Below, in pieces: positions 2,819-55,008 of a stretch of DNA of 64,000 nt (positions are counted from its first letter, which is position 1; the number at the start of each line of letters is the position of its first letter). The notes beneath the pieces are model-generated. The model worked only from the letters and a program-made list of their open reading frames with translations. It was not told the DNA's origin and did not search any database. The translations under genes were made by a program, and so were the position numbers. This DNA is from a virus: IMG/VR virus record IMGVR_UViG_3300017963_000011, positions 1-64,000 of that record; one strand, 5' to 3'.

Positions 2819-3187
2819 TCAATCTGAATAGCGGCTTCTGCCAGTGCCCTTGCATCGAGGACACTGCGTTGGGTCGATGTAGCCACCAGGGCCTGGATCT
2901 CCATCGTAGAGCATGCCGGTTCCATTGCATTTGCGGCACTTCCAGGTGTTCTTTGCGTGGCCTGAGCCTTTCTTCCGCACTCGTTTGGGTGGCTTGTAGC
3001 CCAGCGATGCGAGCCTGTTTTTTAATTCGGAGTGCGCGGTCATGACATCTGCAATGGCATCTGGGTCTGACTTGCCAGGAAAGAGAGAAGCAGTGATGGC
3101 GTCTCCCACGTCCTCGGCGAAAGCGGCATAGGCCCTTAGGACTTTTGCCGCTTGTCTTGTGTATTTGATTTCATTCTTCTTGGTCAT
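2819..3187 (-). CDS. Protein with DnaJ-type CxxCxGxG zinc finger
   Basis: CRKCNGTG...CPRCKGTG. Confidence 0.65.
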   Translation of the reverse strand: MTKKNEIKYTRQAAKVLRAYAAFAEDVGDAITASLFPGKSDPDAIADVMTAHSELKNRLASLGYKPPKRVRKKGSGHAKNTWKCRKCNGTGMLYDGDPGPGGYIDPTQCPRCKGTGRSRYSD

Positions 3188-26206: not shown

Positions 26207-26578
26207 ATGAAGTGCAAAATCGTTCAGAGCGTACTCTTCCATGGCAAGCACCTCCAGCAAGGCACGGTGTATGACTTCGAGAGCGAGCACGCTCGCGAAC
26301 TGACCGAGAAGGGCTTTGTCAAGCCTGTCAAGCAAGAAATCAAAGAACTCGAAGCCGTTCTCAACGACGAGACCGTTCCCAAAGTCACGGTGCCGAAGTT
26401 CGATCGCGAGAAGCACCCTGCCGAGAAGGCCGATCAGGAAGCGGTAGCCGAGAAGACGAGGCGCCGCAAGGCCAAGGAAGCCAAGTCCGACGAGGAAGTC
26501 GTCGACGCCACGATCGAAGAGGAAGAGGCACCGAAGAAGAAGCCCGCGAGGAAGAAATCTTCCAAGAAGAGAGGGTAA
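26207..26578 (+). CDS. Hypothetical head-associated protein
   Basis: AAAGGAG RBS; charged C-terminus. Confidence 0.7.
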   Translation: MKCKIVQSVLFHGKHLQQGTVYDFESEHARELTEKGFVKPVKQEIKELEAVLNDETVPKVTVPKFDREKHPAEKADQEAVAEKTRRRKAKEAKSDEEVVDATIEEEEAPKKKPARKKSSKKRG

Positions 26579-26581
26579 ACC

Positions 26582-27049
26582 ATGGCGTATGCGGATCTCG
26601 ACAAGGTGGACACTCTCCTCAATGGGGATCTCTACAACAGAAATCTTCAAGAGCTAGGAGAGACTTGCGCTGCCAAGGCAGACGCCATCGTGGACGCATA
26701 CGTGAGCAATCGCTACAACGTACCCTTCACGACTACCCCGGCTCTCATTGCGAGCATAGCCCAGGACATCACGATCTTCTACTTGATGCGCACAGGTTAC
26801 TTCGATGGGATCGCCGGGAATGACAAAGAGACAGCCAAAGAGTTCTACGACATGGCCATCAAGGATCTGGAGAAGATCCGAGATGGCGATATGGATCTGC
26901 CGGATGTTGATCCGGCAGATGTTGGCACGAATGTGAACCGCATCGCTTCGACAAGGGAAGACTACCATCCCTCTGTGGATATGGGTAGCGAGCTTGATTG
27001 GGGCGTTGATGAAGACCTTGAAGAAAAGCTGGAGAACGACAAGACGTAA
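26582..27049 (+). CDS. Head-tail adaptor (Mu gp36/DUF1320-like)
   Basis: MAYA...ADAIVDAYV..RY.VP...IA.DI..FYL...Y..AIK.LE.IRDG. Confidence 0.85.
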   Translation: MAYADLDKVDTLLNGDLYNRNLQELGETCAAKADAIVDAYVSNRYNVPFTTTPALIASIAQDITIFYLMRTGYFDGIAGNDKETAKEFYDMAIKDLEKIRDGDMDLPDVDPADVGTNVNRIASTREDYHPSVDMGSELDWGVDEDLEEKLENDKT

Positions 27050-52049: not shown

Positions 52050-52580
52050 GTGAACATGCTACCAGTTTTCAAATTGATTTATGATGAGTCAACATATGAA
52101 ATCGTCGACTCGGTGCCGGCGCAACCCGACAATCCTCCGTCAACTCTTGTCGACAAACCCGATGGCTTTACCTGGGACGAGCGCACTCTCTGGAAATACG
52201 ACCCTACAGAAGAAGAAGTCGTCCAGAAAACCGGCCAGGAGTATGACGATGCTCTCGCGTTAATCAAAGCGAAGATCGCCTCTGATCTCGCCTTGGAGTA
52301 TACCCGCAAGAACCTCGAAGACATTTTCACGGTCATGGGCTCGATGGAGGCTATGCTCGACTGCACAAATCAGATCGTGCAGAAAGTCATGAATGAGGAT
52401 ACGATCACACAGGCTGAGAAGGACGCCTTCAATCTTCTCGTAAATACTTGTTCGTCCAAGTTCAAGCTAACGCTGACCAACGTTACACAAGCCATCGCCG
52501 ATGGTATGAAGGCGAAGAAAGAAAAGGCCCGTGATACCGAGACAGACATGAAGAACGATCCTAGGTGGCCGTATTCATAG
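52050..52580 (+). CDS. Putative fibre assembly chaperone
   Basis: Follows the fibre genes; WKYD...VVQKT then helical C-terminus. Confidence 0.5.
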   Translation: MNMLPVFKLIYDESTYEIVDSVPAQPDNPPSTLVDKPDGFTWDERTLWKYDPTEEEVVQKTGQEYDDALALIKAKIASDLALEYTRKNLEDIFTVMGSMEAMLDCTNQIVQKVMNEDTITQAEKDAFNLLVNTCSSKFKLTLTNVTQAIADGMKAKKEKARDTETDMKNDPRWPYS

Positions 52581-52609
52581 AGTGTAGCGCTACAACGAGG
52601 GGGTATTAA

Positions 52610-53599
52610 ATGGGAAGGGATGGGGCAGTGGCCGATCAGATTAGAATTCTGGTCGTCGATAATGACGAAACATCTATCCAGTCTCTTCGAGACATGCTTG
52701 GTGAATATGATTTCGAGGTCGAGGACGTTCGGGATTCTCGCAAAGTCCTAGATCATCTTCGACAAACCAATGACTATTCTCTTCTCATTCTTGACATCAA
52801 CATGCCTCACAAGGATGGCGTGACGCTGGCGTCTCAGGTCAGAAATACTCTTCACTACGACACGCCTATCTTGTTCGTATCGGCTGATATCAGCAAGACC
52901 AACCTATCGCGCATTCGTAGAATGAGTCTCGGTGGCCACACCGTAGAGTTTCTGAAGAAGGGTAGCTTCAATTCAGAGATCCTCTTCAACGTAGCTATGG
53001 CCTTGATCAAGGAACGCATCTCCACAAACAACGTTTCTGAGATCAAAGGACGCGTTTCCAAGATGCAGAAATCCCAGGATGAGATCAAAGAAACAATATC
53101 TGATTTCATCCTGAAGCTGGAAGACAAGCCACTCGTGTCCATTGATCATTGCAAGGCTCAATCCGAGGAACTTGTGAAGTCCCTTCGCAAGGAGGTCATT
53201 GGCATCACCCTCGGGGAAGCTAGTAAGAAACTAGATGAGGCACTGAAGCCTGAGCCTCTCGCTGTGAGGATTGGCGCCGCGCTCACGGAGAAGCCCCAAG
53301 CTATCGAGCCTGCTCTTGAACCAAATCTCATGTTTGCAAAGACACGCCAAGCCGCCGCATGGAAGATGGCCGTCTATTTCTTGCTCGTTATCTTTGCTGG
53401 GCTCTGCATTTTCTGGGGAAACATGTGGACCAAAGCTGATCATGCCGACGATGGGGTTCGTAAGCTAGAGATCCAGCAAAAGCAAGTTATCGATACGATG
53501 CAACAACAAACGACTGCGATGAAATCTCATTTCAGGCGTCTTCAGAAAATGTTCAAGTCCAACCCAAGCATGTGGGTTACAACCAAAACGCACCCGTAA
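52610..53599 (+). CDS. Response-regulator receiver domain, coiled coil and single TM, in the lysis cassette
   Basis: RILVVDND, LLILDINMP, DG, PILFVSA, EFLKK; TM MAVYFLLVIFAGLCIFWG. Confidence 0.85.
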   Translation: MGRDGAVADQIRILVVDNDETSIQSLRDMLGEYDFEVEDVRDSRKVLDHLRQTNDYSLLILDINMPHKDGVTLASQVRNTLHYDTPILFVSADISKTNLSRIRRMSLGGHTVEFLKKGSFNSEILFNVAMALIKERISTNNVSEIKGRVSKMQKSQDEIKETISDFILKLEDKPLVSIDHCKAQSEELVKSLRKEVIGITLGEASKKLDEALKPEPLAVRIGAALTEKPQAIEPALEPNLMFAKTRQAAAWKMAVYFLLVIFAGLCIFWGNMWTKADHADDGVRKLEIQQKQVIDTMQQQTTAMKSHFRRLQKMFKSNPSMWVTTKTHP

Positions 53600-53608
53600 G
53601 GAGGTAGC

Positions 53609-54103
53609 ATGGCACTGGTGACGAAGAACGATATCAGGAGTACGGAGACCCATTCATACGCATTGAAAGGGCTCGGTGAAATCCGATACGTCGATCTCCC
53701 CCGTGGCTACATCAAGATCATCAACGACTTCCCACAGAAGTGCCTCATCAGAGAGACCTTTCCCATCATCGGCACGAAGTACGTCCACAAGGTGATGGCT
53801 CCAATGCTGATGAAGGTGATGGAGTTCATCCGCCACAAGGTCGAGTACGATGCGGAATGGGAGTACATCCTTCACGGGAGCATCTTCAATCCGAGGCACA
53901 TGTGGTATCACAAGAACAAGCCGATCTCGATGCATGCTTTCGCGGCTGCGGTCGACATCAATCCATGGGAGAACCAGCCCGGAACGCCCGGCACCATCCC
54001 CCAACATATCATCCACCTGTTCGAGTCCAATGGTTTCAAGTGGCTCGGGCACATGGATCGACCCGACCCGATGCACTTCGAGGTGGACATCGATAAGCTC
54101 TAA
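53609..54103 (+). CDS. Endolysin, peptidase M15 family
   Basis: FNPR...SMHAFAAAVDINP...F...GF.W.G...DPMHFE. Confidence 0.9.
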   Translation: MALVTKNDIRSTETHSYALKGLGEIRYVDLPRGYIKIINDFPQKCLIRETFPIIGTKYVHKVMAPMLMKVMEFIRHKVEYDAEWEYILHGSIFNPRHMWYHKNKPISMHAFAAAVDINPWENQPGTPGTIPQHIIHLFESNGFKWLGHMDRPDPMHFEVDIDKL

Positions 54104-54125
54104 ATCAAAAGTTCCAACATTTATC

Positions 54126-54154
54126 TTGCAACATCCTCCGGGGTGTTGTATCTT
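54126..54154 (+). promoter_or_regulatory. Sigma70-like promoter overlapping a hairpin upstream of the holin
   Basis: TTGCAA-17 bp-TATCTT; CAACATCC..GGGTGTTG inverted repeat. Confidence 0.45.
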
Positions 54155-54176
54155 TTACGGCAGAAAGGGGGTGAGC

Positions 54177-54563
54177 ATGGCAGAGGAGAAAAAGTACAGT
54201 CCGTGGGAGAGCGTGATCTGGCATTTTCGTTCTCGGAAATCCAGGCTTGCCATGGCAGCGGTGATCGCGATAATCCTTGCCAACAGTAAGTGGGTTCAGA
54301 GCAAACTCAGCCTCGATCCCTCCACCATCCCGGCACTGTCCCAGAACATCGTGATCTGTCTCGGCATCATCATCGCTGCCGTCTCAGGAGAGAAGATCAT
54401 GATGAACGGTAACGGAAATGGGAAGACGCCCGATCCCAAAGAGGGAGTCACACTCAGCGTGGAATCCGTTGTCGACTTGAAGCTCAAGGAGAAGTTACAC
54501 GAGGAACTCGAAAAGGGCCTCGACAAACTGACTGACAAGATCAAGGAGAAACTCAACAAATGA
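54177..54563 (+). CDS. Putative holin (2 TM)
   Basis: Start re-called at MAEEKK; SRK followed by two hydrophobic segments and a charged C-terminus; next to endolysin. Confidence 0.6.
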   Translation: MAEEKKYSPWESVIWHFRSRKSRLAMAAVIAIILANSKWVQSKLSLDPSTIPALSQNIVICLGIIIAAVSGEKIMMNGNGNGKTPDPKEGVTLSVESVVDLKLKEKLHEELEKGLDKLTDKIKEKLNK

Positions 54564-54943
54564 TGACCCTGAAGGCCGCAGAAAAGAAGGGCTACGTTCC
54601 GACCAAGATCCAGATCGAGGTGCTCATGCACCCCGAGACAGGCAACATCCTCTATCCCTGCGACGGCTGCGTGACCAAGGCGTATGACACCTACGCCATC
54701 ATCTCCGACCCCCTCTACAACGACGACGGCAAGAAGGAAGACAAGGTGGTCAACCTCGTCTGCAAGAAGCACAAGAAGCGCTACCAGAAACCCTCGGCTC
54801 CGACGTTCGAGGGCATGGTTCGCCTCAACCTTCAGATGCTCGTCGGCAAGAAGTGGGAGAAGATCTCCCAGGCCATGGTCAAGCGCATGCGCAAAAGCCA
54901 GGGCTGGTTCGACTGGCTCTACCCGGAGGACGACGACGAATGA
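54560..54943 (+). CDS. Hypothetical protein with C/H motif
   Basis: ATGA-coupled; CDGC...CKKH. Confidence 0.65.
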   Translation: MMTLKAAEKKGYVPTKIQIEVLMHPETGNILYPCDGCVTKAYDTYAIISDPLYNDDGKKEDKVVNLVCKKHKKRYQKPSAPTFEGMVRLNLQMLVGKKWEKISQAMVKRMRKSQGWFDWLYPEDDDE

Positions 54944-54978: not shown

Positions 54979-55008
54979 AGCCGGGGCGCAAGGCCCCGGC
55001 TCTTTCTT
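54979..55008 (+). terminator. Intrinsic terminator at the convergence of late and replication blocks
   Basis: AGCCGGGGC-GCAAG-GCCCCGGCT followed by CTTTCTT. Confidence 0.75.

Follow-up and report, generated by a model that had tools for sequence, protein, structure and literature searches.

A receiver domain joined to a membrane protein in the lysis cassette of an uncultured marine-sediment virus: a candidate regulator of lysis timing

An uncultured marine-sediment virus of 105 kb (IMG/VR record IMGVR_UViG_3300017963_000011) encodes, nine nucleotides upstream of its endolysin gene, a protein in which a response-regulator receiver (REC) domain is joined to a single transmembrane (TM) helix and a short external tail. 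The source record is a complete viral genome of 105,134 bp with direct terminal repeats, and we analyzed its first 64 kb, referred to here as the window; coordinates are those of the window, and features lie on its plus strand unless stated otherwise. The gene (52610 to 53599, ATG start) specifies 329 aa, every part of which is conserved in an alignment of its family, and we call its product the REC-TM protein. Our preferred reading, which we advance tentatively, is that it is a membrane-anchored atypical response regulator of lysis timing, acting as an antiholin-like protein or a holin accessory and not as the hole-former. It can equally be described as a lysis-timing accessory or as an atypical response regulator.

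Residues ~10 to 135 (52637 to 53014), which are predicted to be cytoplasmic, are a genuine response-regulator receiver domain, as a preliminary description made from the sequence alone had recognized. The protein matches Pfam Response_reg (PF00072) with 58.5 bits over residues 13 to 101, and with 60.5 bits in a genome-wide search, against a cut-off of 30.2 bits; by sequence it is closest to OmpR-family regulators and CheY in NCBIfam and PDB, and its best PHROG is phrog_731. An AlphaFold2 model gives the (beta-alpha)5 fold with a predicted local distance difference test score (pLDDT) of ~85, with strands at residues 12 to 16, 36 to 40, 58 to 61, 87 to 91, and 112 to 116, each followed by a helix, and Foldseek superposes the domain on the receivers of CheY, PhoP, and CpxR with template-modelling scores of 0.80 to 0.87 and root mean square deviations of ~2.2 to 2.8 Å. 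The catalytic residues were assigned by transferring CheY numbering onto the family and HMMER alignments: D62 corresponds to D57 of CheY, S91 to T87, F114 to Y106, K117 to K109, D17 to D12, and N18 to D13. The phospho-acceptor (D62), the Ser/Thr position (S91), the aromatic switch (F114), and the lysine (K117) are all conserved across the family, so that the acceptor, serine, and lysine noted previously hold up. The acidic pocket noted at VVDND does so in part; D17 is in place, but the second position is Asn in this phage, where every REC-bearing relative has Asp-Asp. The residue directly following, D19, might compensate for the missing acid.

Receiver helix alpha5 extends into a long stalk, forming a cytoplasmic helical linker (residues ~136 to 250; 53015 to 53359). 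Helices are modelled at residues 122 to 171, 178 to 212, and 239 to 317, all at low pLDDT, and a crude heptad score peaks at residues ~136 to 173 and 283 to 318; the linker and C-terminal coiled coils of the preliminary description may correspond to these long helices and heptad peaks, although the low pLDDT and the crudeness of the score leave them as modelled features. Foldseek aligns the receiver together with the stalk, over 157 to 199 columns, to WspR (3bre), EutV (6ww6), and RssB (3f7a). The single TM helix, also as described previously, occupies residues ~251 to 271 (53360 to 53422), has a Kyte-Doolittle value of 2.1 over 19 aa and a conserved Gly264, and is found in all eight of the family members compared. 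Its N-terminal flank is net positive and its C-terminal flank net negative, an arrangement shared by most family members, and by the positive-inside rule the receiver and linker are predicted to be cytoplasmic and the 57-aa tail to lie outside. The putative external (periplasmic) helical tail (residues 272 to 329; 53423 to 53596) carries invariant G282-V283, L286, and Q300, and ranges from 48 to 90 aa across the family; with low confidence, AlphaFold2 continues the TM helix beyond the membrane as one helix to residue ~317. Neither Pfam nor NCBIfam shows a DNA-binding or enzymatic output domain in the protein, in line with the earlier observation that a DNA-binding output is absent. We note that the linker has a single cysteine, Cys181 (nucleotides ~53150 to 53152), which is kept in seven of the eight family members, including one that lacks the receiver (P0006, see below).

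The genomic position of the gene is that of a lysis gene. From ~17 kb to 52.5 kb, the plus strand encodes a terminase, the major head protein, a tail protein (phrog_290), and open reading frames (ORFs) just upstream of the cassette that we read as tail fibres; from 55 kb onward, the minus strand encodes a primase, a helicase, and an exonuclease. Four plus-strand genes sit between these structural and replication blocks, and they are closed by a strong GC-rich hairpin terminator (54979 to 55001; 8 of the 9 stem base pairs are GC, and the tail is T-rich) that ends the late operon and past which the genes run on the minus strand. The REC-TM stop codon (TAA, 53597 to 53599) is followed by nine nucleotides holding GGAGG and then by the ATG, at 53609, of a 164-aa M15-family endolysin gene (53609 to 54103; Pfam Peptidase_M15_4, E = 2.2e-10), confirming the spacing given in the preliminary description, and the two genes are predicted to be cotranscribed. 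Hydropathy analysis finds no hydrophobic segment in the endolysin, and so no signal or signal-arrest-release segment. Further downstream lies a 128-aa holin-like gene (54177 to 54563), whose product has a basic N-terminus, two hydrophobic segments, and a highly charged helical C-terminus; only the segment at residues ~51 to 76 exceeds the hydropathy threshold, the first (~24 to 36) being short and judged by eye. The earlier designation of this gene as holin-like is backed by these segments and by its conservation in a related locus (see below), but the protein has no holin family match in Pfam or PHROG, and we regard it as a candidate class-II-like holin. The placement of the REC-TM gene after tail-fibre genes, nine nucleotides before an endolysin gene, and in a terminator-closed operon supports a role in lysis timing. 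No histidine kinase had been seen in the window, and we find no HATPase_c match in the whole 105-kb genome, in which the REC-TM receiver is also the only REC domain; with no phage kinase, the protein must draw on host phosphodonors.

The REC-TM family comprises ~10 sequences, including cluster members, all of them metagenomic. A word-indexed search of 5.8 billion proteins yielded four relatives; the non-REC half of the protein, searched exhaustively with HMMER against 1.84 billion representatives, matched family members only and added two; and a later profile search added one more (P0011). Linker, TM helix, and tail are conserved together with the receiver across the family. One relative from the HMMER search, P0006 (185 aa), has no receiver and retains the linker, TM helix, and tail, so that either the membrane module exists alone or the P0006 gene is split; this points to a membrane module that may function in its own right, the receiver providing an additional input. 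The only relative with DNA context is on a 1.9-kb metagenome contig (L002), in which a REC-TM gene is followed 8 nt downstream by an M15 endolysin gene and then by a holin-like gene, each ~45% identical to its window counterpart. By sequence comparison the lysis cassette is conserved between the two loci, and the linkage of homologs to lysis genes, on which the preliminary description had made its proposal depend, is seen in the one relative in which it could be read; because the two phages are related, the conserved cassette counts as one lineage. Scans of viral contigs using A1, A2, A3, and P0007 as queries found no relatives, a scan of genome contigs recovered only ordinary bacterial regulators, and L002 was the one true relative in a scan of metagenome contigs; PADLOC returned nothing meaningful. 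Scanning with the endolysin identified only one distant locus (L023, 4350 to 5333; IMG/VR UViG_3300021963_000439), in an unrelated phage. We note that this locus encodes a 69-aa protein with hydrophobic stretches, holin-like by eye, and a 121-aa protein with a charged helix-like N-terminal part and, by eye, a hydrophobic C-terminal segment; the latter matches phrog_937 weakly (E = 0.02) and lies directly upstream of the distant M15 endolysin, in the same slot without a receiver.

In at least four unrelated lineages of cultured Alteromonas phages (V22, R9Y1-3, H4/4, and PB15), the lysis cassette includes a gene for a stand-alone REC protein. In V22, a tail fibre and its chaperone are followed by a papain-like amidase, ORF29 (a coiled-coil protein with a TM helix at its N-terminus), ORF30 (gp30, a 149-aa REC protein of phrog_731), ORF31 (an Rz-like i-spanin; phrog_4297, E = 7e-6), a lipoprotein ORF, and a 2-TM protein, placing the receiver gene in the middle of the lysis cassette; ORF30 and ORF31 overlap by 32 nt. 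The lipoprotein ORF is unannotated (99 aa; L024:8493-8792, MN877442 ~26492-26791), has the lipobox LTGC, shares sequence with the 3' end of ORF31 and with the beginning of ORF32, and is most likely the missing o-spanin. Siphophages R9Y1-3 have a tail fibre, gp13 (TM helix and coiled coil), gp12 (REC), and gp11 (lysozyme) with 4-nt overlaps, and the autographivirids H4/4 and R8W have a tail fibre, a holin (phrog_1356), gp43 (TM helix and coiled coil), gp44 (REC), gp45 (a TM protein), and the small terminase. In siphophage PB15, the REC protein is preceded by an XhlA-like protein (phrog_937, E = 1.8e-16), in which a coiled coil is combined with a C-terminal TM helix, and is followed by an M15-type endolysin (phrog_894) and a holin (phrog_3427; Pfam GTA_holin_3TM). 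This is the gene order of the window, save that the window fuses the receiver and the helical membrane protein in one polypeptide. The annotated start of the PB15 REC gene (KX982260, L028:2989-3387) at 3010 cuts off strand 1; the gene probably begins seven codons earlier, at an in-frame ATG at 2989 that adds MKKRVFV; such a start would restore strand 1 and create an ATGA overlap with the XhlA-like stop codon.

Start and stop codons overlap throughout these cassettes, and the endolysin varies, being an amidase in V22, a lysozyme in R9Y1, and an M15 enzyme in PB15, and lying elsewhere in H4/4. What stays with the receiver as the endolysin type changes is thus the lysis slot and a single-TM helical partner. 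The Alteromonas receivers are 26 to 34% identical to that of the window and share the motifs MPHK(D/N)G and PI(L/M)F(V/L)S. BLASTP gives no alignment between V22 gp30 and the window receiver; in a structural comparison with the window model, gp30 ranks third among viral matches. When viral contigs were scanned for the REC pattern, mainly the same Alteromonas phages were recovered, together with a Spo0A-like bacterial locus and a giant-virus contig. By analogy, the independent recurrence of REC proteins in the lysis cassettes of different Alteromonas lineages also favors a role for the REC-TM protein in lysis timing. In the literature, V22 gp30 is labelled a CheY-like auxiliary metabolic gene (AMG) within a "host recognition module" (PMC7289586, PMC10579305), and the R8W receiver (G48) is read as PhoB, an adaptation to low phosphate (PMC8228385). 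The PhoB label misfits R8W G48 and H4/4 gp44 because the protein, annotated as "DNA-binding response regulator PhoB" (PMC8228385), has ~153 aa without a DNA-binding domain; it consists of a receiver only, and its gene lies between those of a holin and a membrane protein.

A plausible course of events, in which each functional step is drawn by analogy, is as follows. Late in infection, a host histidine kinase or acetyl phosphate would phosphorylate D62, and phosphorylation would shift the dimer or oligomer state of the stalk, as in WspR, EutV, and the OmpR/PhoB family. The altered stalk could then change the clustering of the TM and external helices or their engagement with the holin, so that hole formation, and hence endolysin release, would be advanced or delayed by the signalling or energy state of the host. 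The predicted complex of the TM helix and tail with the holin-like protein scored 0.00 in a run without controls and is evidence neither way.

Several observations weigh against this interpretation. By comparison with CheY D13 mutants, N18 could weaken Mg2+ binding and phosphorylation. The synteny of the family rests on two related loci and could reflect shared ancestry, and the Alteromonas cases are analogous, not demonstrably homologous, with sequence identities like those of ordinary bacterial regulators; an hhalign comparison of the window's C-terminal module with their single-TM partners likewise gave no similarity. The preliminary description had proposed a holin or antiholin, and the architecture and cassette position on which it drew stand; however, the REC-TM protein matches no holin family in Pfam, PHROGs, or NCBIfam and no antiholin family (such as those of T4 RI/RIII, P1 LydB, or N4 gp62) in PHROGs or Pfam, and a regulator or accessory fits better than a holin. 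No member of the family matches the XhlA-like phrog_937 at E ≤ 1, and the ESM Atlas contains nothing above noise for the protein. Finally, a six-frame lipobox scan found no o-spanin near the cassette and none credible elsewhere in the genome; an embedded ORF in the +1 frame (53271 to 53468) has a poor lipobox and no counterpart in L002. A similar scan, with a looser lipobox-only test, did recover the V22 o-spanin. Because no spanin was found, the cassette is not fully understood.

Three other roles can be considered for the REC-TM protein. It could stand outside lysis altogether, as a membrane-localised decoy or phosphate sink that drains or blocks host two-component signalling (for example, that of envelope-stress kinases) late in infection, with its position at the end of the late operon reflecting only the gathering of accessory genes there. 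We consider this unlikely, even though sink-type single-domain receivers exist in bacteria, the protein has no output domain and needs host phosphodonors in the absence of a phage kinase, and the family synteny is limited to the window and L002. The published treatment of the Alteromonas receivers as auxiliary or signalling genes is also in its favor (PMC7289586, PMC10579305, PMC8228385). A gathering of accessory genes does not readily account for receiver genes lying within cassettes, between a holin and membrane proteins or overlapping i-spanin or endolysin genes, in several unrelated lineages with different endolysins, nor for REC-TM genes 8 to 9 nt before the endolysin in both L002 and the window; moreover, a membrane role beyond anchoring is suggested by the conservation of the external tail and by the family member that lacks a receiver.

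The remaining two roles would place the protein directly in the lysis machinery. As a single-TM, N-in/C-out holin gated by its cytoplasmic receiver, with the 2-TM protein as a second holin or an antiholin, it would occupy the expected slot directly upstream of the endolysin, and a single TM helix with a conserved glycine and helical segments would suit oligomerisation. The T4 holin T has this single-TM, N-in/C-out topology, and so does N4 gp63 (PMC12642591). We nevertheless favor a regulator, and view a holin as quite unlikely, because a separate, conserved class-II-like holin candidate is present two genes downstream, because the TM helix is uniformly hydrophobic and aromatic and has no polar face, and because the split versions in Alteromonas phages have a soluble receiver with recognised holins as separate genes. 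A protein of 329 aa with a 250-aa cytoplasmic part is also far from any described holin. The C-terminal module could alternatively be an i-spanin-like disrupter of the outer envelope, placing the last step of lysis under phospho-control; its TM helix followed by an external helix, N-in/C-out, is the arrangement of Rz, and the overlap of the V22 REC gene with a confirmed Rz-like i-spanin gene, with a lipoprotein o-spanin next to it, fits such a role. The only non-REC profile matches in the family are to four different Rz-like spanin PHROGs, one member each (E = 0.015 to 0.09), but these are individually insignificant and may reflect only the pattern of a TM helix plus a helix. An external tail of 48 to 90 aa is short for spanning the periplasm, and the lipobox scan yielded no credible o-spanin gene; we regard an i-spanin as improbable.

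Other features of the region are as follows. The palindrome GTAGCGCTAC (52584 to 52593, unstranded and read directly from the sequence) lies 17 nt upstream of the REC-TM start codon, between the stop codon of the preceding gene and the REC-TM ribosome binding site, just ahead of the gene as the preliminary description had it; it lacks a T-tract, and a role as a terminator is ruled out. Six nucleotides separate the ribosome binding site, GAGGGGG (52597 to 52603), from the ATG. A 176-aa protein without a family match is encoded at 52050 to 52580, after the last tail-fibre-like gene and ahead of the lysis cassette; from the position of the V22 tail-fibre chaperone, it may be a chaperone. A weak hairpin with a T-rich tail (54127 to 54150) between the endolysin and holin-like genes is terminator-like, but its fold is no better than that of shuffled sequences (z = -1.1) and it may be due to chance. 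The last gene of the operon (54560 to 54943) encodes a soluble 127-aa protein that no library assigns to a family; its start codon and the holin-like stop codon overlap as ATGA, and the product, translationally coupled to the holin-like protein, may serve as a further lysis accessory. No tRNA gene lies in the window, and the major capsid protein shares only ~25 to 30% identity with its counterparts in Roseobacter, Vibrio, and other phages. A search of sequencing runs places the stretch in sediment and seawater metagenomes, with no RNA run listed among those holding it.

The moment at which a phage lyses its host weighs heavily on its fitness, and the known means of control are the concentration of the holin, the membrane potential, and a small number of antiholins; we know of no post-translational input into lysis from host two-component signalling. 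The fusion of a receiver to a lysis-cassette membrane protein suggests such an input on lysis timing. It is possible, if somewhat doubtful, that receivers in phage lysis cassettes constitute an unrecognised recurrent layer of control in which host phosphotransfer acts directly on a membrane lysis factor. Under the same guarded proposal, the phage would sense the physiological or envelope state of its host to time the burst, and the fusion would be a "Rosetta stone" naming the single-TM helical partner as the target of the receiver. If so, the genes published as PhoB-like phosphate-starvation AMGs would have to be read differently, and a response-regulator architecture with a TM helix as its output would be added to those known. 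The preliminary description knew of no described example, and our literature search likewise found no paper tying a two-component receiver domain to phage lysis; however, the stand-alone receivers of the Alteromonas lysis cassettes were already in GenBank, listed as AMGs. The split form is thus known from cultured phages under another annotation, and the fused form is a rare architecture of ~10 sequences with a TM helix as output.

The REC-TM protein shares features with several known systems. In PBSX, XhlA, encoded directly upstream of the lysin and holin genes (XhlA-XhlB-XlyA), combines a coiled coil with a TM helix close to the C-terminus and is needed for timed lysis; it differs from the window protein in having no receiver and in belonging to phrog_937, which the window protein and its family do not match and which is represented in PB15 by the protein preceding the receiver. 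In WspR, EutV, and RssB, as in the window protein, receiver helix alpha5 continues into a helical stalk, through which phosphorylation alters oligomerisation. Their outputs are soluble domains (GGDEF, ANTAR, and PP2C-like), whereas that of the window protein is a TM helix and an external helix; to our knowledge, no response regulator with such an output has been described. T4 lysis inhibition acts through the holin T and the antiholins RI, in the periplasm, and RIII, in the cytoplasm. Similarly, lysis timing in N4 is set by an accessory protein acting on a membrane holin (gp62/gp63; PMC12642591). The likeness lies in how timing is set: in answer to a signal, accessory proteins on one or the other face of the membrane act on the holin within it, although there is no sequence or domain similarity, and none of the T4 or N4 proteins has a two-component receiver; the "Receiver domain" of the N4 study is a mere label for a mutation cluster (PMC12642591). 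Lambda Rz resembles the window protein in its N-in/C-out TM helix, helical periplasmic segment, lysis-cassette location, and the weak PHROG matches, whereas the window protein departs from it in its short tail, in the 250 aa that extend into the cytoplasm, and in that no partner o-spanin was found.

The Alteromonas receivers (V22 gp30, A5 gp11, R8W G48 / H4/4 gp44, R9Y1 gp12, and PB15) provide the closest comparison. The literature treats them as PhoB or CheY-like AMGs, with no link to lysis stated. Like the window receiver, they have an intact phospho-site, no output domain, and no kinase encoded by the phage, and their genes lie downstream of tail-fibre genes, either among the lysis genes or leading them, in translational coupling with the gene of a single-TM helical protein and with that of an endolysin, a spanin, or a holin. 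They differ in that the Alteromonas receiver is a separate soluble protein of 125 to 153 aa, whereas that of the window is fused to its membrane part.

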